Shown here: positions 8,193-45,572 of the stretch, piece by piece | Position numbering within the stretch: the first letter of the stretch is position 1 | Layout: the number at the start of each line of letters is the position of its first letter | Assembly: GCA_038897215.1 (NCBI GenBank) | Contig: JAWAWX010000001.1 | Span: forward strand, 576,001 to 640,000 | Direction of reading: 5' to 3' | Length of the DNA: 64,000 bases | Source of the DNA: Acidilobaceae archaeon | GTDB taxonomy: Archaea > Thermoproteota > Thermoprotei_A > Sulfolobales > Acidilobaceae | The notes under the pieces: model-generated | Seen by the model: the letters and a program-made list of their open reading frames with translations, nothing else | Database searches by the model: none | Told to the model about the DNA's origin: nothing | Translations under genes and position numbers: made by a program

Positions 8193-9614
8193 CTATAGGA
8201 TGAGTGCTAGAAGAGCGTAGAGTAGCAGTGTGGCCATTAACGGCAGGAGGGGTGAGGGGAGCCACTCCCTGTAGACTATGGCTGGTGGCAGGAGTAGAGT
8301 CGGGGTCATTGCTACCAGTGTTTCAGCTACGTTGATGAGCGAGCTCGCGTCTACCCCCACGGCTGCTCCGCTCTGCTCGAGTATTGTAGCTAGTAGTTTG
8401 AGGAAGTATAGGGTTATAGCTAGAGATAAGGTCATCAACGTAGCTAAGACGAGACTGTGTCTTCGAGACTCGGCCGAACTCCTCCTCACTTCTTCGTGGA
8501 GTTCATGAATATAAGCTAGAACCTCTTGAGCTCTCGTAGACCCAGCCGTGGTCGAGGATGCGAGAAGAGCGTCTATCACGCTCGTTAGAATGGTTTCTCG
8601 AACTCTAGCAAGCTTATCCCAGTTCAGAATCCCCACTCTAGCCTCCTCTAGCGCTTCTCTGAGTAGTGAGGAAGCACGCTCGACTGAGATGCTCTCTCGT
8701 AGAGCATAGAGCTCTATCGCTATAGCGATTAGCGTGAGGAGAGCTAGCTCGAGCAAGAGCCCTGCTCGAAGCCCTACTATACTACAAGACGCTATGAGGA
8801 GCACTGAGATAAACCCCAGGAGCTCTGTTCTCTCAACGCTCCCGACTCTTGGCCTAAAGAACATAAGCGTGAAGCCAGCAGCTAGCGATGTTAGAGCGAG
8901 CAGTAGAACCGCGATACTCCAATCGACTCCACCTAGGAGCATTAAGGGGACTAGAACAGGCATCGAGACCACTACTGTAGCCACTATCTCCGAGACTACG
9001 TATGAAGCAGCGAAGAAGACCCTCCACTGGTCTCTAGTTTTCTGAAGAGCTTCTCTCAAGAACATGACGGCTATATCCGTCCTAGAAGCTCCCACGATCA
9101 CAGAGTTCACGTAGTCTCTCAGAAAATAGCTGAACGACTTAGAGGGCGTGGTTGAAGCTAGAGCTTGTAGTGCCGCTACGGGGTCGAGCCCTAGGTTCAT
9201 CAGCACTCTAAGCCTAGAAATCTCAAATCTTAAGCTGAAAGGGAGTCTCTCACGGTCAACGTATAGGATGATGTCAGCGAGATTAGACGAGACTCTAGCT
9301 AGGGGGAGCAGTAGAGACATTATTATAGGCATGTCTCTCTCGAGAGCAAAACCTATATGAGCTCTAAACAATCGCGATGCTATAAACGGAGAAGCTATGG
9401 TCAGAACTGTGACCATCAAAGCCGCTGGGAAAGAGTTCGTGGCAACAAGCGATACCGCGAAAGCCACTGTAGAGATAGGTAAAGAAGCTCTAAACATTAC
9501 TCTGAATAGCGAAGCATACTCGCCGTAAAGTCGAGGACTCCAAAGAGCTCTCTCTAGCCTAACTAGGAGAGCAGATAGGTCTCTGATGAGGAGTAAGAGT
9601 CTAGGCGACTCCAT
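8193..9614 (-). CDS. Type IV pilus membrane platform protein (TadC/T2SS-F family)
   Basis: Multi-TM, G.DP..AL..LA..TPS motif, coupled to the secretion ATPase. Confidence 0.8.
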   Translation of the reverse strand: MESPRLLLLIRDLSALLVRLERALWSPRLYGEYASLFRVMFRASLPISTVAFAVSLVATNSFPAALMVTVLTIASPFIASRLFRAHIGFALERDMPIIMSLLLPLARVSSNLADIILYVDRERLPFSLRFEISRLRVLMNLGLDPVAALQALASTTPSKSFSYFLRDYVNSVIVGASRTDIAVMFLREALQKTRDQWRVFFAASYVVSEIVATVVVSMPVLVPLMLLGGVDWSIAVLLLALTSLAAGFTLMFFRPRVGSVERTELLGFISVLLIASCSIVGLRAGLLLELALLTLIAIAIELYALRESISVERASSLLREALEEARVGILNWDKLARVRETILTSVIDALLASSTTAGSTRAQEVLAYIHELHEEVRRSSAESRRHSLVLATLMTLSLAITLYFLKLLATILEQSGAAVGVDASSLINVAETLVAMTPTLLLPPAIVYREWLPSPLLPLMATLLLYALLALIL

Positions 9615-15158: not shown

Positions 15159-15725
15159 ATGTACGTCTCGGCTTTCAGGCTACCTGAGAAGCTCCGAAAA
15201 GACTACGCCGTAAGCCTGGGTCCTGTAACTCCTTCTCTCGAAGAGATTCTCTCTAACTTCGAGACTAGTGGCCTAATCTGTGTAGGCGATGTAGTCTCAA
15301 GTACTTGCATTAAATCGTCTTCAAAGAGAAGAATAGAGAACATAGTTGTACTTTACGATAGAAGAACTATGAGAAAGCCGCTAGCACTAATGAATTCTAG
15401 CATAGAGCAACTACAGCTAAGGATTGAAAGAGTTGAGAATCCTTCGAGCTACGTTACTACGAGAGCGATCGAGACTCTCTGCAGACTTCTGGAGGAAGCG
15501 TGCTCCACTCGCAACACTAGGCTAGCCTTAGAGGTAGATGGAGAGGAGGACCTTCTAGCTCTAGTCGCTCTAGAGTGTGGACCACGAGATTGGACTGTAG
15601 TCTATGGAATGCCGGGAAGAGGAGCTGTTGTGGTTCCACTAACACCTCTCCTTAAGAGCATAATACAGAACCGCGTCCTACAACTAAAGCCTGAACTAGC
15701 CCCGCTAAGGAACTCGAAAACTTAA
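15159..15725 (+). CDS. GTP-dependent dephospho-CoA kinase (DUF359)
   Basis: VGDVVS, VENP, VDGEEDLLAL, YGMPGRG; conserved synteny. Confidence 0.88.
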   Translation: MYVSAFRLPEKLRKDYAVSLGPVTPSLEEILSNFETSGLICVGDVVSSTCIKSSSKRRIENIVVLYDRRTMRKPLALMNSSIEQLQLRIERVENPSSYVTTRAIETLCRLLEEACSTRNTRLALEVDGEEDLLALVALECGPRDWTVVYGMPGRGAVVVPLTPLLKSIIQNRVLQLKPELAPLRNSKT

Positions 15726-15760
15726 AAAGGAGGGAGATTAAGGCGAGAAGAGGGGTTGAA

Positions 15761-16096
15761 TTGAGTCTTAGCACTAGAGTCTCTAGGAGAGACATAGTTA
15801 TCGGAGGGGGGAGAGCTGAGATTAGGAGAGAGAAGTACAATCCTCTCGTGGGGCGCATCGAGCTAGAGGTAGAGATAGAGCATTTACTAAAACCTACCCC
15901 CTCTCGCGTAGATGTTAGAAGAGCGATAGCGGAAGCTTACGGGGTAGACTTGGAGAGAGTGTATGTGCGAAGCCTTAACACGGAGTATGGGGTAGGCGTG
16001 ACGAGAGCCGTTATCCACATATACGATAGCGTTGAGAGAGCGAAGAGTTTCGAGCCAGAGTATGTGATTAAAAGAAATGAGGGAGAGAGCTCCTAG
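15761..16096 (+). CDS. rps24e: 30S ribosomal protein S24e
   Basis: NPLVGRIE, TPSR, TEYG, EPEYVIKRN. Confidence 0.95.
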   Translation: MSLSTRVSRRDIVIGGGRAEIRREKYNPLVGRIELEVEIEHLLKPTPSRVDVRRAIAEAYGVDLERVYVRSLNTEYGVGVTRAVIHIYDSVERAKSFEPEYVIKRNEGESS

Positions 16097-16108
16097 AGGT
16101 GAACCCTA

Positions 16109-16345
16109 ATGAGTTCTTCTAGCAAGAAGAAGGAGCTGAAGACATACATACACAAACTCTATGTAATCGACCAGTCCACGGGAACCGTGAAACTAAAGAA
16201 CAAGAAGTGCCCTCGTTGCGGTAGCATAATGGCTCACCACAAACAACCAGTGGAGAGATGGCATTGCGGAAAGTGTAGCTACACGGAATTCGTGAGCGCT
16301 AAGCCCACAGCGCCCCCGGCTCCCGCTAAGGGAAGAAAGAAGTGA
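16109..16345 (+). CDS. rps27ae: 30S ribosomal protein S27ae
   Basis: KKCPRCG..MAHH..RWHCGKC. Confidence 0.97.
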   Translation: MSSSSKKKELKTYIHKLYVIDQSTGTVKLKNKKCPRCGSIMAHHKQPVERWHCGKCSYTEFVSAKPTAPPAPAKGRKK

Positions 16346-17376
16346 TAGTGCTCGGCATAGAGTCTACAGCGCATACATTCGGAGTCAGTGTAGTCTCCGA
16401 GGACCCTCCCTTTATCTTATCTGATATTCGTAGATTCTATGCTACCAAGAGTGGCGGAATCCTGCCGAGAGAAGCCTCGTCTTTCTTCTCGAAGATAGCC
16501 GGGGAGGCTGTGAGAGAAGCCGTGGAGAAGGCCGGGGTTAGCGTTAGAGAGATAGACGCGATAGCTGTAGCCCTAGGGCCGGGGATGGGTCCTCAGCTCA
16601 GAGTAGGAGCTAGCGTGGCTAGAGCTCTCGCCTCCTACTATTCTAAGCCCCTAGTTCCTGTAAACCACGCGGTAGCCCACTTAGAGATAGCGAGATTCAC
16701 GACTGGCTTACTGGACCCGATAGCTCTCTATGTAGCTGGAGGCAATACCGCTGTTGTCTCCTACGTCGCTGGCAGATATAGAGTCTTCGGTGAAACTCTA
16801 GATATAGCTCTAGGAAACCTTCTAGACACCTTCGCTAGAGAAGCTGGACTAGCACCGCCCTACGTTATAGGAGGAGAGCATGTTGTTGACGCGTACGCCA
16901 GAGGAGGAAGCTATCTGAAGAATCTATTTCCCTACGTAGTGAAAGGACAGGATGTCTCCTTCTCCGGACTCCTAACAGCTGCTCTGAAAGCATTGAAAGC
17001 AGGCTTCAGGATAGAGGATGTATGCTATACTCTGAGAGAGATAGCCTACTCATCCGTAGTAGAGGTCTTAGAGAGAGGCCTAGCTCACACAGAGAAGAGA
17101 GAGGTAACGATCACCGGGGGTGTAGCAGCAAGCAAGGTCCTAGTCGAGAAGGTGAGAGCAATGGCTGAGCTTCACGGAGCCGAGTTTAAGCCCGTGGAGG
17201 CGCGATATGCTGGAGATAATGCAGCAATGATAGCGCTAACGGGACTCTTTGCTTTCAAGAGCGGGCTGTACATGAGAGACGTCAAGAACGCTCACATAAG
17301 GCAACGATGGAGGCTTGACGATGTAGACGTACCGTGGTATTACAGCCTTCCAGCAGCGATAATCGCGAGGCGGTAG
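16342..17376 (+). CDS. kae1: KEOPS tRNA t6A synthase Kae1
   Basis: LGIESTAHT, VNHAVAH, ETLDIALGN, DNAAMIA. Confidence 0.97.
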   Translation: MIVLGIESTAHTFGVSVVSEDPPFILSDIRRFYATKSGGILPREASSFFSKIAGEAVREAVEKAGVSVREIDAIAVALGPGMGPQLRVGASVARALASYYSKPLVPVNHAVAHLEIARFTTGLLDPIALYVAGGNTAVVSYVAGRYRVFGETLDIALGNLLDTFAREAGLAPPYVIGGEHVVDAYARGGSYLKNLFPYVVKGQDVSFSGLLTAALKALKAGFRIEDVCYTLREIAYSSVVEVLERGLAHTEKREVTITGGVAASKVLVEKVRAMAELHGAEFKPVEARYAGDNAAMIALTGLFAFKSGLYMRDVKNAHIRQRWRLDDVDVPWYYSLPAAIIARR

Positions 17377-17379
17377 GCT

Positions 17380-18072
17380 GTGCTAGAGTGCTTTGAGAGC
17401 TGGGTTAGGACTCTTCCTCTGCTCAAACGCGGAGCAGAATCTGAGATAAGAGTAGGAGACTTTGCGGGCATCAAGGCCGTCTTCAAGATCAGATTCAGGA
17501 AAAACTACATGGACCCCCTTCTAGCTAATGAGCTAATAAGCAAGAGGACTAGAAAAGAGGCGAAGGTGATAGCGTACGCTAGAAGCAAAGGCGTGCCAGC
17601 TCCATCGCTTTTAGCTGTATTCCCTAGCGTAGGAGTCATAGTCCTCGAGTACATAGAGGGAGTTAAGCTGAAGGATTTGATCGACGTGAGCCTCGAAGAG
17701 TCTTCACTCCACATGTTTGAAGCCGGTAGAATACTAGGCAGGCTACACTCAATCGGTGTAGCTCACGGCGATCCAACCACATCTAACCTGATAGTCTCTA
17801 AGCGGGATAACTCTCTCAAAATAATAGACTTCGGGCTCTCAGAGTTTACTAAAGACGTAGAAGACCTAGCTGTAGACATTCACCTCTTTAGGAGGGCTTT
17901 AGAGAGCACTCACGCTCTCTACGCGAAGAAGCTGATCGCTGCGTTTGAGGACGGGTATAGGGATGCCTTTGGAGTAGAAGCAGAGAAGATGTTAGCAAGA
18001 GCTGATGACATACGACGGAGAGGAAGATACGTGGAGGAGAGGAGAAGAGCTGTTTGGAGAATCCCGAGGTAG
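17380..18072 (+). CDS. bud32: KEOPS kinase Bud32
   Basis: RGAES, HGDPTTSN, IDFGL, RGRY. Confidence 0.96.
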   Translation: MLECFESWVRTLPLLKRGAESEIRVGDFAGIKAVFKIRFRKNYMDPLLANELISKRTRKEAKVIAYARSKGVPAPSLLAVFPSVGVIVLEYIEGVKLKDLIDVSLEESSLHMFEAGRILGRLHSIGVAHGDPTTSNLIVSKRDNSLKIIDFGLSEFTKDVEDLAVDIHLFRRALESTHALYAKKLIAAFEDGYRDAFGVEAEKMLARADDIRRRGRYVEERRRAVWRIPR

Positions 18073-37982: not shown

Positions 37983-39110
37983 CTAGAACTGATACTGGAC
38001 CCTGTATCTGAGAACCCCGGCTAGCCCCCCGAATGTCTCGAGAAACCAGGGGGCTTCCGGCACGCCTGATGGGATTACTATGACTTTAGCCCCTCTAGAC
38101 TCTCCCTCCTGCTTCCAGGAGTCCTTGTCTTCTCTGTTCTCATGCACTAGTAAAGTCTTAACTGCTCCCATCTCGAGAGCTAGCTTCACTTCCTTATCTC
38201 CATAGACAGCCATCCCCGTCATCTGAGCTAAGTGGAGCTTGAATTCTTCGAGTGCTTCTACAGCCTCTCTGTAGATCTGTGCTTGTATCACATCTCTAGC
38301 CTTCATGACTGCCTCTTTCAGACCCTCGTATCCCTGGTACGCTACGTCTACTAGCTCCTTGGAGACTAGCTGAGCTAGCCTGTAGTCTAGGAAGCCTCCT
38401 TTGACGAAGTCTTGCTTAGCGTAGCCGGGACCTGCTACTATGACCGCTTTGAGCACTCCCTTCTCTAGGAGTGGGAGAAACTTGCTGTTAGCTGCTTCAC
38501 CTACCTTCTTGAAGAACTCTTCGACCATCTGCTCTATTATCCTATCGTATCTCCTCTGGCTCTGGCCTCCTTTCTCGTGCTTTCCTGGGACGAAGCCTTC
38601 TAGCTCGTCTAGCACCTCTATCCTGCCTCCTTTAAGGAGCCCTATTGTTGCTTGGTCTCTCTCAACTATGATTATGCCTACTGCCTCTTTCTCCTCGACC
38701 ATGTCTTCTAGGAACGATGTTATGAACTCCTTCTCGGTCCTGTAGTAGAAGACTGGGACCTTCTCGGGGGGTGAGAACGTTAGGCATATGAAGTCCCCTG
38801 TGTCCATGTTCTCTCCGCAGAACACTACTAAGCCATTGGGGGGAGTCTTCGGGATCATCTGGATCCTGTCTATGGCAGCGCTTAGAGCTCTCTTGACAGC
38901 CTGCCGTGTCCTCTTCAGCTTTATGTTATCCGTGATCGAGAACTCTTGCCTCAGCAGTTGGAGGACGTCTGTGAGAGGCTTCCCTGGGGGGACGTAGAGG
39001 CTTAGGAGGACCGTGGCTGGAGCCTGCCAGCTCTTCAGCTCTCTTATGATCTTAGCTAGCTCTTCTCTGCTCACCTTCAGCTTCTCTAGCACCTCTTCTC
39101 TGCTGCTCAT
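37983..39110 (-). CDS. prf1: Peptide chain release factor aRF1
   Basis: NIKL, GKHEKGGQSQRRY, AGPG. Confidence 0.97.
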   Translation of the reverse strand: MSSREEVLEKLKVSREELAKIIRELKSWQAPATVLLSLYVPPGKPLTDVLQLLRQEFSITDNIKLKRTRQAVKRALSAAIDRIQMIPKTPPNGLVVFCGENMDTGDFICLTFSPPEKVPVFYYRTEKEFITSFLEDMVEEKEAVGIIIVERDQATIGLLKGGRIEVLDELEGFVPGKHEKGGQSQRRYDRIIEQMVEEFFKKVGEAANSKFLPLLEKGVLKAVIVAGPGYAKQDFVKGGFLDYRLAQLVSKELVDVAYQGYEGLKEAVMKARDVIQAQIYREAVEALEEFKLHLAQMTGMAVYGDKEVKLALEMGAVKTLLVHENREDKDSWKQEGESRGAKVIVIPSGVPEAPWFLETFGGLAGVLRYRVQYQF

Positions 39111-39184
39111 CTCTCTTACCCTATCAGGTAGCCTCTCTCAGCTATCGCTGAGCAGAGCTTAAAGATTGAGAGGCCCCGGTTTAG

Positions 39185-40123
39185 TCATGGGATTAGGAGT
39201 GATAAGACTGCTTTCTGAGCGTGTAGCCTGTTCTCCGCCTGGTCCCACACGACGCTCTGAGGCCCGTCTATGACCTCGTCTGTCACCTCTTCGCCCCTCC
39301 TAGCTGGGAGGCAGTGCATGAAGATAGCCTTGTCTCCAGCTAGGCTCATCAGCTCTCCGTTGACTTGGTATGGCTTCAAGAGTCTCTTCTTGAGCTCAGC
39401 CACATCCTCTTGACCCATGCTGACCCAGACGTCCGTGTAGACCACGTCCGCTCCTCTGACGGCTTCTCTGGGGTCTTCTATGAACTCTATGGTGGCTCCC
39501 GTCTTCTCAGCCTCTCTCAGCGATGCTGCTAGTAGCTCTGGGTGAGGTCTAAGCTGGGGTGGTGATGAGATGACTATGTGGAGACCGAGCTTGGCTCCGG
39601 CTACTATCAGACTGTTAAGCACGTTGTCGGAGCCGTCTCCGACGAATACTAGCTTCACTCCCCTCAGTCTCCCCTTCTTCTCGAGTATCGTCATCATGTC
39701 TGCTAGAGCTTGGAGAGGGTGGCTCACGTCGCTGAGCCCGTTTATCACGGGCACGCTCGAGTAGCGAGCTAGCTCGACTAGAGTCTCGTGCTTCCTCACT
39801 CTAGCGACTATCCCGTCGACGTATCTCGATAGAGTTCTAGCTGTGTCAGCCACGCTCTCTCCTCTAGCTAGCTGGAGCTCATCCCACCTCATGTAGAGAG
39901 CTCTCGCTCCAAGCTGGTGCGCTGCGACCTCGAGGCTCACTCTAGTCCTCGTGCTAGGCTTCTCGAAGAGTAGAGCTATGACTCTCCCCTCTAGGAGGGG
40001 GATTATTCTCTCTCCTCTACGCTGTCTCTCCTTGAGTTCGAGACCTCTCCTGATGATCTCCTCGACTTCGCTCGACTCGTAGTCCACTAGTTCAAGCAAA
40101 TGCCTGCCTCTAAGAGTTCTCAA
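39185..40123 (-). CDS. argF: Ornithine carbamoyltransferase
   Basis: STRTR, HPLQ, DVWVSMG, HCLP, QAENR. Confidence 0.96.
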
Positions 40124-40142
40124 GGAGGCTCAGCCTCCGAGA

Positions 40143-40412
40143 CTAGGAGCCTAGAGCTTCTCTTAAGTCTTCCTCGGTTATACCTAAGTCCTCCTCCGTG
40201 AGCTCTACCTCTAGCTCTGCTAGGAACGACACCAGGTCTCCTATAGCGACCTCGTCTCGAAACACTAGGCTCTTCACGTCATCCCAGCTCTTCACTCTAA
40301 CACCGAAGTCCTCCCAAGCCCATTCAGCTACCTCCTCGAGACTACAGTGCTCTCTGAGCTTCTCGTAGAGCCTAGTCTTCAGCCTAGCTAGTCTCTCCCT
40401 TCTAGAGGCCAA
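40143..40412 (-). CDS. Hypothetical acidic small protein
   Basis: 89-aa ORF with GGGG RBS, co-oriented with argF. Confidence 0.7.
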   Translation of the reverse strand: MASRRERLARLKTRLYEKLREHCSLEEVAEWAWEDFGVRVKSWDDVKSLVFRDEVAIGDLVSFLAELEVELTEEDLGITEEDLREALGS

Positions 40413-40475
40413 TTCTCAGCCCCCTCTCTTTATTAACTCGAATAGCTTTATCTAAGCAGAGCGGGCAAGAACCTC

Positions 40476-41072
40476 TTGATCGAACTCTTAGAGAGCCTCG
40501 TGAAGCCTGAGAGAGGAGGGAGGCCTTCCTTCACTCTCTACCACATCTACGTAGCTCTTAGAGAGCTGAGGAGAGAGCCTCTAGGAAGACCTACTCTCTC
40601 CAGAGTCTTGGAGTTAAGCGATTCCTCGGTGAAGACTCTACTAGCTAGGCTCGAGAAGAGAGGGCTAGTAGCTAGGAGTAGAGGAGGAGCCTACCTAACC
40701 GAGGCGGGAGCCGAACTCCTAGACTGGCTAGAGTCTAGACTCTCGATCTGCGAGACGAGTCTGAGCATCGAGCAGTGGGGGAGAGTCGCTGTAATCACTG
40801 TAGCGTGCGTTAACCCCCCGGTTAGAGAGGTTGACGCTCTAGCATACAGAGACTTCTTCATATCAGCTGGTTGCAGTAAAGCCATGATAGGAGGGCTTGT
40901 CGAGAAGAGGATAACTATGCCCGGGCTGCCTCCAGACCTAGAGGAGAAGATTAGCTCCGAGGTCTCCAGATGCGTTCCTCGAGATAGAGAGAGGCTCGTA
41001 GCCATAGTGAGCTATGAGGAGCTCAGCAAAGCGTGTAACGCTCTCCTGAGTGTCTTCAAGCAATGCCTTTAA
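40476..41072 (+). CDS. wHTH protein with DUF4443-like C-terminal domain
   Basis: GGRPSFT..H, PLGRPTLS..LELS..SVKTLL.RL...G. Confidence 0.7.
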   Translation: MIELLESLVKPERGGRPSFTLYHIYVALRELRREPLGRPTLSRVLELSDSSVKTLLARLEKRGLVARSRGGAYLTEAGAELLDWLESRLSICETSLSIEQWGRVAVITVACVNPPVREVDALAYRDFFISAGCSKAMIGGLVEKRITMPGLPPDLEEKISSEVSRCVPRDRERLVAIVSYEELSKACNALLSVFKQCL

Positions 41073-41252
41073 CCGGGGAGTTAACGGGTTTCAATCATTA
41101 CGAGAGAAGCTCGAGACCTAAAGCTACTACTTCTAGAGTGCGCTCTACTCTAGCCTAGTAGTACTCACGCGCGTAAACCCAAATTATACAAACTCTTTTC
41201 TAAGAAGCTTAGCTAGCTCAGAGAGAGCCTTGAGTAACACTAGTTGTAGTTA

Positions 41253-42014
41253 CTACAGAGAGGGCTCTGGGCTCGAGCACTTATCTAGAAGCTCTTTCAG
41301 ATTCTTCGAGAACCCTACTCTAACCCCTAGTCTCGGGTCTGTGTATATGTAGAGGAGCCCCTTACTCTGAAGAGTTCTCAGTACTCTCATGAGCCAAGAG
41401 TAGTCTGCTTCGAGCTTCTCCTGGAGCTGGTCTACATACATGTAGGTTGTGCCCCATCTAGCGTAGTGTGAGGCTAGGTGAGCTAAGACTTCGAACTCAT
41501 CCTCGCTTATCAAGCTTCTGAGCTTGGAGAGAGCGCAGGTAACCGTGGAGACTCTCTCTTGTAGTTTACTGCCGGCTTTACCCGTTAGCTCGGCAGTAAA
41601 CGGCAAGACTTGCTCAGAGGGAGTGGAGCGAGCTGGCTGAGCCTTGTCTTTTATTGCCTGCTTTACGCTAGACGAGAGGATCCTCTGGGCTATGAGAGCG
41701 TACTCGTCGAGAGAGCTCTTCCTAGCCTCCCTCATGTAGATAGACCTAGCGTACTCCTCTCCTCTAGCTGTGAGATACCAGAGCCCCGAGCTGTACTCAA
41801 CGTAGCCTCTGACCCTCCAGTAAGACAGGTAGCTCGACACGTACCTAGAGCTCAGCCCTAGGACCTCAGCGATCTCCGCTGACCTCATGGGTCTGGAGAG
41901 GAGGAGCAAGAATATCGAGTCCACTACTCTGCTACGCGGCCCGCTTCTCTCTCTCTTCTCTAGAGCTCTCTCTAGTAGCTTCTCCTCATCTCTCGCTCTC
42001 CACTCGATGCTCAG
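41253..42014 (-). CDS. whiP: Replication initiator WhiP (winged-helix initiator)
   Basis: GPRSRVVDSIFLLLLSRPMRSAEIA..SRYVSSYLSYWRVRG plus a second wHTH; frame open upstream of GTG 41924 to CTG 42014 with GGGG RBS. Confidence 0.82.
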   Translation of the reverse strand: MSIEWRARDEEKLLERALEKRERSGPRSRVVDSIFLLLLSRPMRSAEIAEVLGLSSRYVSSYLSYWRVRGYVEYSSGLWYLTARGEEYARSIYMREARKSSLDEYALIAQRILSSSVKQAIKDKAQPARSTPSEQVLPFTAELTGKAGSKLQERVSTVTCALSKLRSLISEDEFEVLAHLASHYARWGTTYMYVDQLQEKLEADYSWLMRVLRTLQSKGLLYIYTDPRLGVRVGFSKNLKELLDKCSSPEPSL

Positions 42015-42107
42015 AGCTCCCCGCCCCTAGCTGGGGGTAGGCTATATCGGCTCTTGCTCAGAGAGCCTCGGTCTTACGCTAGTTTAACCCCCCGGTTAAC
42101 GGCTCGG

Positions 42108-43265
42108 CTAGAAGACGCTCAAGCCAAGAGGCTCGAGTCGCTTCAAGAGATGCTTCTCTAGCTCCGCACCCGTCTTGTAGTATTTTAGTAGGAGCTTGTC
42201 CCCCCTCTCTAGCACTATGCCCGGGCTCGGGGGGACTAGCCAGTCGCTCTTAGCTTTCTTGTATACTGCCACCACGACGAAGCCTTGGTCCTCTAAGTCT
42301 AGCTTGCTCAGCTCTACGGGGTCTTCGCGAGTGTAGGATACCTTGAGGTAGGCTTCTTCACCCATCTCTACGGCTTTGCCCAAGACCTCAGAGACTTCTC
42401 TCTTTAGCACCACGCTAGCGAGCTTGTAGGCGGCGTCTCCGATCTCCTCTAGGCTCTTTATGAAGACAGCTAGGCTGACCACGTCTCTAGAGGGGGCTGA
42501 GTAGGAGTGCTCCATGACGCCCTCGAGGCTCTCGTAGTACAGCTTGTCTACGTAGTCTTCTAGCTCCACAACGCTCGAAGCTATCTCCACATCGTCCTCT
42601 ATAAGAGCGTAGAAGGACATATCGAGCATAGCGTCTAGAGAGAGCTTCAAGCTCTTCACGCTATCAGCCAGCCTATCTCCAGCTCTAGAGAGAGCCGCTA
42701 CTTCCTGAGAGCACTTCTCGACGTTGATAGGCTCCCCTAGCTCTCTCGAGAGCTGCTCTATCTCATCCACGGGCCCTCTGACCACGAGGAGGTCTCCCTC
42801 CATAACGCTAGAGACCTCGGGAGCCAGCAGGTACCTCTCTCCTCTCTTGATCAAGAGCACGTCGACGAGAGCCGAGAGAGGCCAGGAGGAGTCCCGCTTG
42901 CTCCTCAGCGGGAAAACCGCTTCGCCCATGCAGGAGGCAGCAGTGATGTAGGGGTGCGGAGGGTAGCCTCTGAGAACAGCTGTAGCCAGGTCTCCGGACG
43001 CGTTGCTTATACTGTCTAGAGCCGAGGCCACGCCGACTATCCCGTGGATCATCCTCGGAGAGCCGCCTACTCTCAGAGCCTGGAAGGTTCTCTCTATCAG
43101 CCGCCTGGACAGACTGTCGACCACGTCTTCTATCATGAGTACTTCGAGCGCTGCAACGCTATCGTTGAACGCTAGAGAGTACACTGCTAGGTCGAAAGCT
43201 GTGCTCGAGTACCGCCTCAGCTGAGCTAGGAGGCCTCTAACGGTCTCCTCGTGTAGTTCGCTCAA
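42108..43265 (-). CDS. PhoU / TrkA-C (RCK-C) repeat protein, ion-transport regulator
   Basis: Two PhoU-like helical bundles (ELEDYVD, LEEIGDAA) alternating with RCK-C domains (GDLLVVRG, GDKLLL). Confidence 0.8.
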   Translation of the reverse strand: MSELHEETVRGLLAQLRRYSSTAFDLAVYSLAFNDSVAALEVLMIEDVVDSLSRRLIERTFQALRVGGSPRMIHGIVGVASALDSISNASGDLATAVLRGYPPHPYITAASCMGEAVFPLRSKRDSSWPLSALVDVLLIKRGERYLLAPEVSSVMEGDLLVVRGPVDEIEQLSRELGEPINVEKCSQEVAALSRAGDRLADSVKSLKLSLDAMLDMSFYALIEDDVEIASSVVELEDYVDKLYYESLEGVMEHSYSAPSRDVVSLAVFIKSLEEIGDAAYKLASVVLKREVSEVLGKAVEMGEEAYLKVSYTREDPVELSKLDLEDQGFVVVAVYKKAKSDWLVPPSPGIVLERGDKLLLKYYKTGAELEKHLLKRLEPLGLSVF

Positions 43266-43746
43266 TAGAGGGCTCTCCCCGATCTCCTCGGCTAAGTAGA
43301 CAGTATAAAACTAGCGCTGCTTCAGCGACTGGGCCCAGCCTGCTCCCCGCCTTCTTGACGTACACGGGGGTCCCGTAGGCTAGCTCGCTAGCAGAGAAAT
43401 CGGGGTCTCCTCCGTTGAAGACCACGAGGACTCTACCGCTGTAAACCGGGGGGTTAAAGGGGTCTATGAACTCTCTAGCGTGCCCGTGGCTGACGAGGAG
43501 GACGGAGTCTGGCTTAAGTAGCTCCAGCGCGTCGGGCAGGTCTTGGAGCACCAGGAAGCTACCTCCAGCTCTCAGAGCTAGCCTCATAGCCTCAGGGATC
43601 CCCGATTGAGCAGCAGCCCCGTAGACCTTCGTAGCCACGAATACCCTCAAGCCGAGCCCGTAGACGAGCCTCGCTGCATCGACCAGTCTCTGAACGCTAC
43701 TCACGTTGTGCAAGAGAGCGACCAGCTCCGCCAACTCCCTCACCAC
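43237..43746 (-). CDS. DUF2122 family SPOUT-like protein (often labelled RecB-family nuclease)
   Basis: LHNVSSVQRL, GAAAQSGIPE, DLPDALELL, RLGPVAE. Confidence 0.72.
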   Translation of the reverse strand: MVRELAELVALLHNVSSVQRLVDAARLVYGLGLRVFVATKVYGAAAQSGIPEAMRLALRAGGSFLVLQDLPDALELLKPDSVLLVSHGHAREFIDPFNPPVYSGRVLVVFNGGDPDFSASELAYGTPVYVKKAGSRLGPVAEAALVLYCLLSRGDRGEPSIERTTRGDR

Positions 43747-43810
43747 CAGTCGAGAGCGCGGAGGAGAGCCTCTATAAACGCGTAGAGCTAAATGCTCTCC
43801 GAGGACCTCT

Positions 43811-44557
43811 CTAGAGGCTCTTAGCTCGAGCGCTCGGAGAGCAGACGGGGCAGTTGGGGCTTCTCGCTACCGGTATCTCCGAGAACTCAGCGTTGTAGCC
43901 ATCGTACACTATCAGCTTCCCTAGTGCTGGCTTACCGTAGCCCGTCAAGATCTTTATCGCTTCAGCAACCTGCAGCATAGCCATGACTCCTGCTGTTGTC
44001 CCCAAGATCGGCGTCCTCTCCTCCTCTCTCGGAGGCTTGGGCACTATGCAGCTGAGACAGGGGGTCTTCTCGGGGACTACTACGAGGAGCTGGCCCCAGA
44101 GTCCTCTGACTCCAGCGTGGATGAGGGGCTTCCTGTGCTCTACTGAGGCTTTGTTGAGAGCTAGCCTGGTCTCCCAGTTGTCTAGACAATCTAGCGCGAG
44201 ATCAGCCTCTCCTACTAGCTCGTATAGTAGCCTCTCGTCGGCTCTAGCAGTCACAGTCTTCACGGAGACGTGGGGGTTGAGCTCTCTCAGCTTCTCAGCG
44301 GCAACCTCAGTCTTGAGTCTACCCAGGTCTCTAGTCGAGTAGAGCACCTGTCTGTTGAGATTACTCAACTCTACTCTCTCCGAGTCTACGAGAACAAGCT
44401 CCCCGACGCCAGCAGCAGCCAAGTACATAGCGGCAGGAGAGCCGAGTCCTCCCAAGCCGACTACGAGAACCCGCGACTTCTTGAGCTTCTCCTGAGCCTC
44501 TACTCCGAATAGCCTCAGCTGTCTATCGTACCGCTCTAGCTCGATACTCGTGAGCAA
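43811..44557 (-). CDS. ThiF/MoeB/UbaA E1-like adenylyltransferase
   Basis: RYDRQ, GLGGLG, SNLNRQ, CLDN, PCLSC, CPVC. Confidence 0.95.
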   Translation of the reverse strand: MLTSIELERYDRQLRLFGVEAQEKLKKSRVLVVGLGGLGSPAAMYLAAAGVGELVLVDSERVELSNLNRQVLYSTRDLGRLKTEVAAEKLRELNPHVSVKTVTARADERLLYELVGEADLALDCLDNWETRLALNKASVEHRKPLIHAGVRGLWGQLLVVVPEKTPCLSCIVPKPPREEERTPILGTTAGVMAMLQVAEAIKILTGYGKPALGKLIVYDGYNAEFSEIPVARSPNCPVCSPSARAKSL

Positions 44558-44591
44558 AAGCGAGCCCTCCTCCTCTTCCAGTAGATGAGGC

Positions 44592-45572
44592 TTATAACGC
44601 CTGGTCTTGAGCGAGAGCTACGGCTACGTAGTCGGCTATAGCTCTAGCGAGAGGAGGCGGGACAGCCTCTCCCACCATGTCGTACTGGAGGTCTCTGCTA
44701 CCCAGGAAGACGTGATAGTCTGGGAACCCCATGAGTCTCGCCTGCTCTCTCACAGTCAGAAGCCTGTCCTCGTAGGGGTGGATGAATCTAGAGGATCCCA
44801 TGACCGTGGGGGCTCTCCTCCTGGGGTCGAGTCTCACGTAGTTGGGGTGTCTGCGCCTAGCTCCCTCAAAGTATAGGAGCGCCTCACCCCACCTCAGCTT
44901 AGAGACTCTAGCTCTCATCCTCCTCGAGAGCTCCTGAGGATACTCGTGGTTAGGAGGGTAGCTGGAGCCTGGTGGAGGCAAGTCTCTTAGAGCCTCCTCT
45001 ACGCTAGGCCCCGGCTTCTTAGGAGGCTTTATCTTGAGGTTCGAGACGAACACTCTAGTCCTCACGCTGGGAGAGCCGTAGTCCTCGGCTCTCAGCACGT
45101 TGAAGTAGACTCTGGGGTAACCTACTCTCTCCAGCTCTCTCCTAATACTCTCCGCTATCGGGGGCTCCATCACTCCTCTAACGTTCTCTATCACGAAGAC
45201 TCTAGGCTTTAGGTCTCCTATCAGTCTAATAGCGTGGAGGAAGAGCTGCCCTATCGGATCACTGTAGAGTCTGTCGAGCGGATCCCTCATCCTCCTAGGG
45301 TTAGCTTCTGTAAACGGCTCGCAGGGAGGGCTCGCTATCACCACATCTACTTCTCCTCGAGAAACCCCCAGGAGGCTCTTGAGTAGAGAGTAGTCTACAT
45401 CCTTGACGTCTTCAGCGAGCACTAGAGCCTCGGGGAAGTTGGCTTTATATGTTCTAGCTACGGGAGGGTTATTCTCTATCGCTGCTAGAACCCGGAACCC
45501 TGCCTCGACGAAGCCTCTACTATAGCCTCCTCCTCCCGCGAAGACGTCAATGAGAGTATAGGTTTCTCTCAT
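44592..45572 (-). CDS. Orphan C5-cytosine methyltransferase
   Basis: [39 protein letters not shown]; no restriction gene adjacent. Confidence 0.93.
   Translation of the reverse strand: MRETYTLIDVFAGGGGYSRGFVEAGFRVLAAIENNPPVARTYKANFPEALVLAEDVKDVDYSLLKSLLGVSRGEVDVVIASPPCEPFTEANPRRMRDPLDRLYSDPIGQLFLHAIRLIGDLKPRVFVIENVRGVMEPPIAESIRRELERVGYPRVYFNVLRAEDYGSPSVRTRVFVSNLKIKPPKKPGPSVEEALRDLPPPGSSYPPNHEYPQELSRRMRARVSKLRWGEALLYFEGARRRHPNYVRLDPRRRAPTVMGSSRFIHPYEDRLLTVREQARLMGFPDYHVFLGSRDLQYDMVGEAVPPPLARAIADYVAVALAQDQAL

Follow-up and report, generated by a model that had tools for sequence, protein, structure and literature searches.

A predicted WhiP-type replication origin of an Acidilobaceae archaeon and a separate quasi-palindromic element found at the edges of several origin types

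Chromosomal replication origins situated next to the gene of the initiator protein WhiP are represented by oriC3 of Sulfolobus and oriC2 of Aeropyrum pernix (Robinson & Bell 2007; Samson et al. 2013, PMC3607249). WhiP-type origins were described as IR(+)/ucm/IR(-) arrangements with inverted repeats (IR) of the 12-bp TACTACTACTAC (preprint 10.64898/2026.08.15.744077). The ucm, ATTATACAAACT or TTATACAAAC, a motif bound by UBP, occurs in each of the three Sulfolobus origins and in both origins of A. pernix (Dhanaraju et al. 2025, PMC12141716, including supplementary Table S1). In Sulfolobus, chromatin immunoprecipitation sequencing of WhiP recovered most DNA from inside the whiP open reading frame (ORF), where WhiP footprints conserved AT-rich repeats, including a perfect direct repeat, with nanomolar affinity (PMC3607249). 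Here, a stretch of 64,000 nucleotides from an Acidilobaceae archaeon (the window, G000:C1:576001-640000) was analysed with respect to its whiP locus and to a quasi-palindrome (QP) repeated around it, which an earlier note had taken for the initiator box of WhiP. The genome is a single contig of 1,159,524 bp with 54% G+C. G-numbers denote the compared genomes, G000 being the source genome and G001 a genome of the same genus, and L-numbers denote extracted loci. The locus is best read as a WhiP-type origin with a separate QP element that is a candidate docking site of another sequence-specific protein, and the probability of this reading was estimated to be about 0.7.

The whiP gene was located on the minus strand at 41253-42014 of the window, the upper end being approximate. 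Homologues carry the name 'replication initiator protein WhiP', and the encoded protein shares 52% identity with A. pernix WhiP (E 3e-69). The 180-bp gap between a PH0730-like gene and whiP, directly downstream of whiP, corresponds to the IR/ucm/IR core. The AT-rich patch described in this gap by the earlier note is present and contains a ucm, ATTATACAAACT, at 41183-41194 on the plus strand, which matches the Sulfolobus ucm oligonucleotide in 12 of 12 positions. To the left of the ucm, a five-genus alignment revealed the TACTAC-type triplet repeats TACTACTTCTAG (41125-41136) and TAGTAGTAC (41156-41164), and the repeats to the right, TAGTTGTAGTTACTACAG (41241-41258), overlap the whiP stop codon (41253-41255). 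The core block aligns across five genera and the ucm is kept in G001, Caldisphaera, G015 and A. pernix. The same layout with the exact TACTACTACTAC was found downstream of whiP in Saccharolobus (locus L081) and S. acidocaldarius. By homology, the triplet repeats would be WhiP sites and the ucm would be the site of UBP. A UBP orthologue was not identified in the G000 genome; the neighbouring orf89 was considered and rejected for this role, being an acidic protein with no PDB match.

The cumulative AT, RY and MK disparities of the chromosome reach local minima in the region of about 580-660 kb, in which a switch of the gene-strand bias was also observed, near 620 kb. A second set of disparity extremes was detected around 1,085 kb to 13 kb. 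Owing to the WhiP homology, the synteny, the presence of the ucm with triplet repeats, the disparity minima and the strand switch, the locus was accepted as very probably a WhiP-type chromosome replication origin (of the Sulfolobus oriC3 / Aeropyrum oriC2 type), one of two in the genome, and the earlier suggestion of a whiP-adjacent chromosomal origin is upheld in this respect. The predicted origin is a further example of the known WhiP type. Like Sulfolobus oriC3 and A. pernix oriC2, it lies directly downstream of whiP with TACTAC-type repeats flanking the ucm, the whiP ORF contains repeats with an 85-bp spacing, and the neighbour genes are the same as in A. pernix. Unlike in those origins, the triplet repeats are degenerate here, and the role of WhiP is a predicted one. 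In the contigs of the metagenome runs the sequencing depth was flat and gave no usable gradient, and in the 3% sampled from two metatranscriptome runs 0 reads fell on the stretch.

The earlier note had also listed three variants of the quasi-palindrome in the inter-domain linker of whiP, at 41564-41581, 41584-41601 and 41649-41666. The three 18-mers are present at these places; they are, however, not degenerate QPs but copies of a distinct 15-mer, W (GRCARTAAAMNRCAA), which reaches beyond the 18-mers. The W-C box, GGCAGTAAACTACAA, occupies 41559-41573 on the minus strand (nt 351-365 of the whiP coding sequence counted from the GTG at 41924), and the W-A box, GGCAATAAAAGACAA, occupies 41644-41658 on the same strand (coding nt 266-280), at the 85-bp distance from W-C that is also seen in Sulfolobus. 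The W-B box, GGCAGTAAACGGCAA (41592-41606, plus strand), is inverted relative to W-A and W-C and forms an 18-nt inverted repeat (I10) with W-C. The arrangement is direct, inverted, direct, in three reading frames of the linker. The same three positions and orientations were found in whiP of at least 15 genomes of several families, from Sulfolobus to Aeropyrum; the reading frame differs between the two direct copies, which in Caldisphaera, for instance, are translated as TIKDK and DNKRQ, and the translation of the inverted copy is LSFIA. In 19 whiP genes, 51 W matches were counted compared to 2.3 in shuffles. The column conservation of the W boxes was 0.81-0.83, compared to 0.53 in the rest of the linker and about 0.69 in the winged-helix domains, and at third codon positions the corresponding values were 0.72-0.86 for the W boxes and 0.47-0.50 for the winged-helix domains. 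No other nucleotides of the whiP gene are as conserved as the W columns. In whiP of S. acidocaldarius, GACAATAAACGACAA is found at coding nt 341(+), 393(-) and 426(+) with the 85-bp direct spacing, and Saccharolobus whiP contains a perfect 15-nt direct repeat, 85 bp apart. The W boxes fit the published WhiP-footprinted repeats inside the whiP ORF and are predicted sites in this genome, so that three further WhiP sites would be added to those of the core. The occurrence of conserved elements within the whiP coding sequence, which the earlier note had emphasised, is of a kind already published for Sulfolobus, and it concerns W and not QP. With W boxes in three frames, the sequence of a protein linker is clearly shaped by a constraint at the DNA level.

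The general form of the QP is T[TA]AAC-YGGGGR-GTT[TA]A, in which 5-bp inverted arms (TTAAC/GTTAA) surround a G-rich 6-bp spacer (YGGGGR). The core AACCGGGGRGTTAA, with at most 1 mismatch, was found in the window at 40810(-), 41071(+), 42084(-) and 43444(+) and nowhere else in it, so all four near-identical copies of the earlier note and their restriction to this part of the window were recovered. The count of 4 compares with 0.01 expected, and 0 of 100 shuffles reached 4. QP1, CTAACCGGGGGGTTAA (40810-40825, minus strand), lies inside the ORF of the PH0730-family winged-helix gene (wHTH198) and is perfectly conserved in G001, where the surrounding protein is 58% identical. QP2, TTAACCGGGGAGTTAA (41069-41084, plus strand), is situated at the outer edge of the core and overlaps the TAA stop codon of wHTH198 (41070-41072). 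QP3, TTAACCGGGGGGTTAA (42084-42099, minus strand), follows the stop codon of a PhoU-like gene at a distance of 8 bp and precedes the probable start of whiP by about 70-90 bp. QP4, TAAACCGGGGGGTTAA (43442-43457, plus strand), is inside the DUF2122 ORF and is conserved in G001, and no counterpart of its position was seen in the other genera examined. When G000 is aligned with G001, each of the four QPs stands out as a perfectly conserved island, the DNA around it having diverged.

A QP is present at the same core edge in G001, G015 and A. pernix, and four of the five genera have a QP at the outer edge. With respect to the aligned whiP start, a QP was located 165-257 bp upstream in 12-13 genomes, and 9 genomes have one 170-250 bp downstream. 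Due to the conservation of the upstream copy in these 12-13 genomes, the autoregulation of whiP through the QP at 42083, proposed in the earlier note, is possible. QP2 and QP3 belong to a 38-nt inverted repeat (41047-41084 and 42084-42121, 82% complementary) that brackets the core and whiP. This repeat reaches the 3' ends of two different genes, and therefore both genes end with ...SVF-type codons (TGAG(T/C)GTCTTC).

Over the whole genome, 9 exact and 17 near-exact QP copies were determined, 13 of them beyond the four in the window. Eight of the 17 are concentrated in two stretches that make up 0.6% of the genome, 616,810-619,457 and 1,081,836-1,086,404. According to the earlier note a genome-wide scan should cluster only at whiP, which did not prove to be the case: there is a second cluster at an origin of the origin recognition box (ORB) type, and 9 copies are dispersed. 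The second stretch lies outside the window and holds this classical ORB origin in the gap between tiaS and rpiA (G000:C1:1,085,239-1,085,663; positions 8239-8663 of the second-origin locus L001). Three direct ORBs (AGACCCCC(T/C)CGTTTCC(T/A)CTGGAGCCCAC and a shorter copy) and one inverted ORB are arranged around an AT-rich region, in which a ucm, GTTTGTATAA, was found between the ORBs (L001:8450-8459). The first ORB is directly adjoined by a QP, and a second QP, in inverted orientation, is found 1,150 bp away. The orc1/cdc6 genes are at 262 and 470 kb, and neither of them is near the ORB origin.

A similar position of the QP was observed at oriC1-type origins of five genera, where the QP abuts the outermost of the ORBs, the sites of Orc1/Cdc6. 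The gap is 0-5 bp in G000, G001, A. pernix oriC1, G006 and oriC1 of Saccharolobus and S. acidocaldarius. In A. pernix oriC1 the ORBs are at 444.9-445.2 kb and the QPs at 444,596 and 445,222, and both mapped A. pernix origins are bracketed by QP. In oriC1 of Saccharolobus and S. acidocaldarius the QP lies between ORB3 and the orc1-1 start. In S. islandicus oriC1 it is just outside the 130-bp region that was mutagenised. In all of the five complete or near-complete Sulfolobaceae genomes studied, whiP/oriC3 is flanked by QPs, with one copy inside the upstream 356-360-aa ORF and one 1.0-1.4 kb downstream; QPs were also found at orc1-1/oriC1 in 4/5 and upstream of orc1-3/oriC2 in 4/5. Unlike in Sulfolobaceae oriC3, where the flanking QPs are about 1 kb off, the QP is directly at the core edge in G000. 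In the genomes examined, the QP nearly always brackets the origin modules, whether of the whiP, the ORB/Orc1-1 or the Orc1-3 type, both in Acidilobaceae, to which A. pernix and Caldisphaera belong, and in Sulfolobaceae. It is a conserved DNA element under selection that forms part of the DNA flanking all origin types of the two families, without being restricted to a single initiator. The proposal that the 18-bp quasi-palindrome is the WhiP initiator box finds no support in view of its presence at the Orc1-dependent origins of A. pernix and Sulfolobaceae and its abundance in conjugative plasmids.

With the 14-mer at up to 1 mismatch, the QP was detected in 17/18 genomes of the Acidilobaceae-like family f1, in 2-42 copies each (reversed control 0-3), and the 16-mer pattern detected it in 22/23 genomes of this family (reversed control 0-1). 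Using the same 16-mer pattern, all 31 genomes of the Sulfolobaceae-like family f13 contained it, with up to about 20 copies, and it was rare in other families of the order. No QP variants were found near whiP in the QP-poor families. In Caldisphaera the element is extended to CATTGTTAAC-YGGGGR-GTTAACAATG in about 30 copies; 18 of the 24 examined are intergenic, often 7-66 bp past a stop codon. In Caldisphaera lagunensis, two inverted QPs, which are 26-bp extended palindromes, bracket one gene of the metallo-beta-lactamase fold (1,498,826-1,499,579; L031:4826-5579), one about 100 bp upstream of the start and the other directly past the stop. In G000, 6-7 of the 17 copies overlap or closely trail a stop codon.

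The QP with its flanks also matches several places in the conjugative plasmids of Sulfolobales. In pNOB8, 12 exact and 8 near-exact copies of the 16-mer TAAACTGGGGAGTTTA were counted, and the pattern T[TA]AAC[CT]GGGG[AG]GTT[TA]A fits the chromosomal QPs and the 20 pNOB8 copies alike. The plasmid 16-mer has the same arms, spacer and length as the QP and is likewise multi-copy, with genic as well as intergenic positions. Unlike the plasmid copies, the QP in G000 is chromosomal, adapted to a higher GC content (TTAACCGGGGGG...), positionally conserved across families and concentrated at origins. The 16-mer of the Sulfolobales conjugative plasmids (pNOB8, pING, pKEF9 and others) has reportedly been called a recombination motif, and TAAACTGGGGAGTTTA is presumably the motif at which the pNOB8 and pING variants arise. 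Ten of the approximately 20 QPs of pNOB8 (NC_006493.1, L091) are located within 2.4 kb at 15,428-17,846, which is mostly non-coding, and this cluster stands apart from the TCTATACCCCC motif taken as the plasmid origin. Dense QP clusters amid small ORFs were also observed in chromosomes: 13 copies in 40 kb at G058:C1:1,311,016-1,351,836 (L086-L088) and 6 copies in 32 kb at 395-427 kb of S. acidocaldarius (L089-L090). These regions are probably integrated plasmid-like elements. Several copies in the dense Sulfolobaceae clusters share the left flank TTTTTCTCAG.

The QP was inferred to be a protein site rather than a hairpin, since one-sided arm changes are fixed without compensation (TATACC...GGTTAA in the A. 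pernix origin copies), positions 6 and 11 (Y and R) vary independently, and both orientations relative to the adjacent gene occur. The binder is probably not WhiP, because WhiP in vivo was found only at oriC3 and inside its own ORF in Sulfolobus (PMC3607249) and the W boxes and TACTAC repeats already explain its sites. In the favoured reading, the QP would dock another sequence-specific protein, probably a symmetric dimer, whose function would be to mark the borders of origin modules or to insulate them, and recombination between QP copies would explain the inverted or relocated origin modules between genera.

Several observations weigh against this interpretation. The triplet repeats of the core are imperfect, with 2 mismatches to the 12-mer TACTACTACTAC, and the predicted origin activity is based on homology and a weak skew. 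In vitro binding of Sulfolobus WhiP to all three origins has been reported (PMC3607249) and would fit the QP distribution, and the QP-rich families are a subset of the whiP-bearing families. The central GGGG is the most conserved part of the QP, yet its polarity relative to the ORBs and to whiP flips between genera, for which a simple symmetric-dimer model does not fully account. No inversion junctions were found in the metagenome contigs of two runs.

Some other identities of the QP were considered and rejected. It does not resemble an ORB, as it has no TCCA-N-TGGAAA dyad and no matching layout of the G-string, and it is found also at whiP origins and far from origins. The ucm, an AT-rich 10-12-mer (A)TTATACAAAC, is unrelated in sequence, and the QP lies outside the AT-rich core, in which the true ucm is a separate element. 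Like the ucm with UBP (PMC12141716), the QP is sequence-specific and present at all origins plus many other sites; unlike the ucm, it is GC-centred and palindromic and stands outside the unwinding region. A transcription-factor regulon was dismissed, as no regulator gene recurs and the genes near the dispersed copies are functionally unrelated (MoxR ATPase, pyridoxal phosphate enzyme, Clp1-like protein, RNA methyltransferase, NTPase, epimerase, metallo-beta-lactamase hydrolase, aldo-keto reductase and a transporter of the major facilitator superfamily). The PH0730-like winged-helix protein may be the specific binder, although its distribution lends no support to this: the gene adjoins whiP family-wide, yet it is present also in many genomes without QP and whiP. 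An identity with the AspA centromere of pNOB8 was rejected, as there is no QP upstream of aspA, and so was an identity with the pNOB8 origin motif, TCTATACCCCC being at 10.5 kb and the QP cluster at 15.4-17.8 kb. Plasmid iterons with autoregulatory inverted repeats of Rep, and DnaA boxes in the dnaA promoter, are comparable in that the initiator gene lies beside the replicator and the repeated sites occur in the origin, the promoter region and the gene. The locus differs from these in having at least three unrelated repeat classes (TACTAC, W and QP), of which the QP is common to origins with other initiators. A literature search for the QP strings, in both orientations and with the Sulfolobus variants, gave nothing relevant. 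Apparently, the QP as an origin-flanking element is undescribed in the accessible literature, and it is absent among the ORB, mini-ORB, C2/C3, ucm and IR elements listed for such origins.

A more far-reaching possibility, to be regarded as tentative and rather doubtful, is that the QP labels origins as cassettes which could undergo inversion, excision or exchange between plasmid and chromosome, or is the site of a new origin-boundary factor whose stalling makes it recombinogenic. The former would provide a concrete mechanism for the 'extrachromosomal element capture', and a boundary factor would act alongside the initiators and UBP, stalling replication or transcription.

It is unlikely that the QP is a box of WhiP itself, in which case this pseudo-dimer with two winged-helix domains would bind its own origin, its own promoter, in autoregulation, as well as accessory sites elsewhere, including the other origins. 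Besides the in vitro binding at all three origins and the presence of whiP in all QP-rich families, both mentioned above, the conserved QP positions upstream (12-13 genomes) and downstream (9) of the whiP start are in accordance with this explanation. The W boxes also share GTAAAC/GTTAAC-like ends with the QP, and between QP2, flanks included, and the W-B region a complementarity of 73% extends over 33 nt (I2). Against it stand, apart from the in vivo confinement of WhiP and the published sites already accounted for by the W boxes and TACTAC repeats, the multi-copy QP in conjugative plasmids and in Caldisphaera intergenic DNA, as well as the genomes G009, G019, G022 and G025, which carry whiP without a QP near it.

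The probability is small that the QP is the core site of a site-specific recombination, with two arms and a 6-bp asymmetric crossover spacer, and that the QP-bracketed origins are invertible, excisable or exchangeable cassettes on this account. Inverted arms of 5-9 bp around an invariant 6-bp YGGGGR match the sites of tyrosine recombinases, and the arms reach CATTGTTAAC/GTTAACAATG in Caldisphaera; the same 16-mer is multi-copy in pNOB8. In Caldisphaera and G013 the orientation of the module of core and whiP with respect to the wHTH gene is reversed, and QPs stand at the module borders; the flanking QP pairs are inverted in 10 of 14 cases, and the module of G000 is bracketed by the 38-nt inverted repeat. 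On the other hand, 17 to more than 40 sites per chromosome together with one tyrosine recombinase gene (G000) would have a destabilising effect, and the QP positions are stable within the genus. The polarity of the QP beside an ORB 4-5 bp away flips between genera, a change which a crossover between two QPs cannot yield, and no strand-switch junctions were detected in the contigs of two metagenome runs. In comparison with dif, the arms and the 6-bp spacer fit and one gene of the Phage_integrase family is present; the QP is multi-copy, whereas dif is a single-copy site. No crenarchaeal dif sequence for comparison was found in the dif literature. If true, a recombination-site QP would give a mechanism for the capture of extrachromosomal replicators. 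The only Phage_integrase-family gene of G000 (700,794-701,252) is about 2.4 kb from a perfect dispersed QP at 698,408, which is located 568 nt inside a nucleotidyltransferase-like gene (about 310 aa) and appears to be conserved in position in G001.

Finally, an RNA or single-strand hairpin at gene 3' ends (a structure like the repetitive extragenic palindromes or a transcript-end structure), incidental to origins, is very improbable: although 6-7/17 copies in G000 and about 10 of 18 examined intergenic copies in Caldisphaera lie within about 66 bp past a stop codon or overlap it, 18 of 24 examined Caldisphaera copies are intergenic and the extended arms could form a 9-10-bp stem, the features given above for a protein site disagree with it, many copies lie far within ORFs or directly beside ORBs in origin DNA that is not transcribed, and no U-tract follows the QP.

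The wHTH198 gene (40476-41072, plus strand; Pfam PH0730-like_N; PDB 2p8t, E 1.5e-11) is convergent with whiP, contains QP1 and has its stop codon inside QP2. Upstream of whiP, a gene with PhoU/TrkA_C domains (Pfam; 42108-43265, minus strand) is syntenic across the family. On this side it is followed by genes of DUF2122, ThiF and a C5-methyltransferase, and on the opposite side there are genes of aspartate carbamoyltransferase (ATCase) and eRF1. The order eRF1-ATCase-orf89-wHTH-whiP-(PhoU)-DUF2122-Dcm, where Dcm is the C5 DNA methyltransferase, is kept from A. pernix to Caldisphaera (window 37983-45572; loci L034-L038), including A. pernix K1 (G014, 1,669,696 bp) and Caldisphaera lagunensis (G017, 1,546,846 bp), and it was also found in further genera of this family. 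The start of whiP seems to be upstream of the GTG at 41924, because the conserved GPRSRVVD motif (in ...ERSGPRSRVVD...) sits in the open frame above this codon; the N-terminal extension with the motif is conserved in A. pernix, Caldisphaera and close relatives. No canonical start is present at 41925-42026 of the window, and a non-canonical start near 42008-42014 (CTG near 42014 or ATC near 42008) would be needed. A TATA-like ATATAG is located about 27-33 nt upstream of 42014.

The origin represents a well-resolved WhiP-type replicator from an uncultured, small-genome relative of Aeropyrum, in which the layout of core repeats, ucm and whiP-ORF boxes is conserved across families. The QP is shared by mapped model origins and conjugative plasmids, and this bears on how origins are delimited and how multiple origins were acquired.

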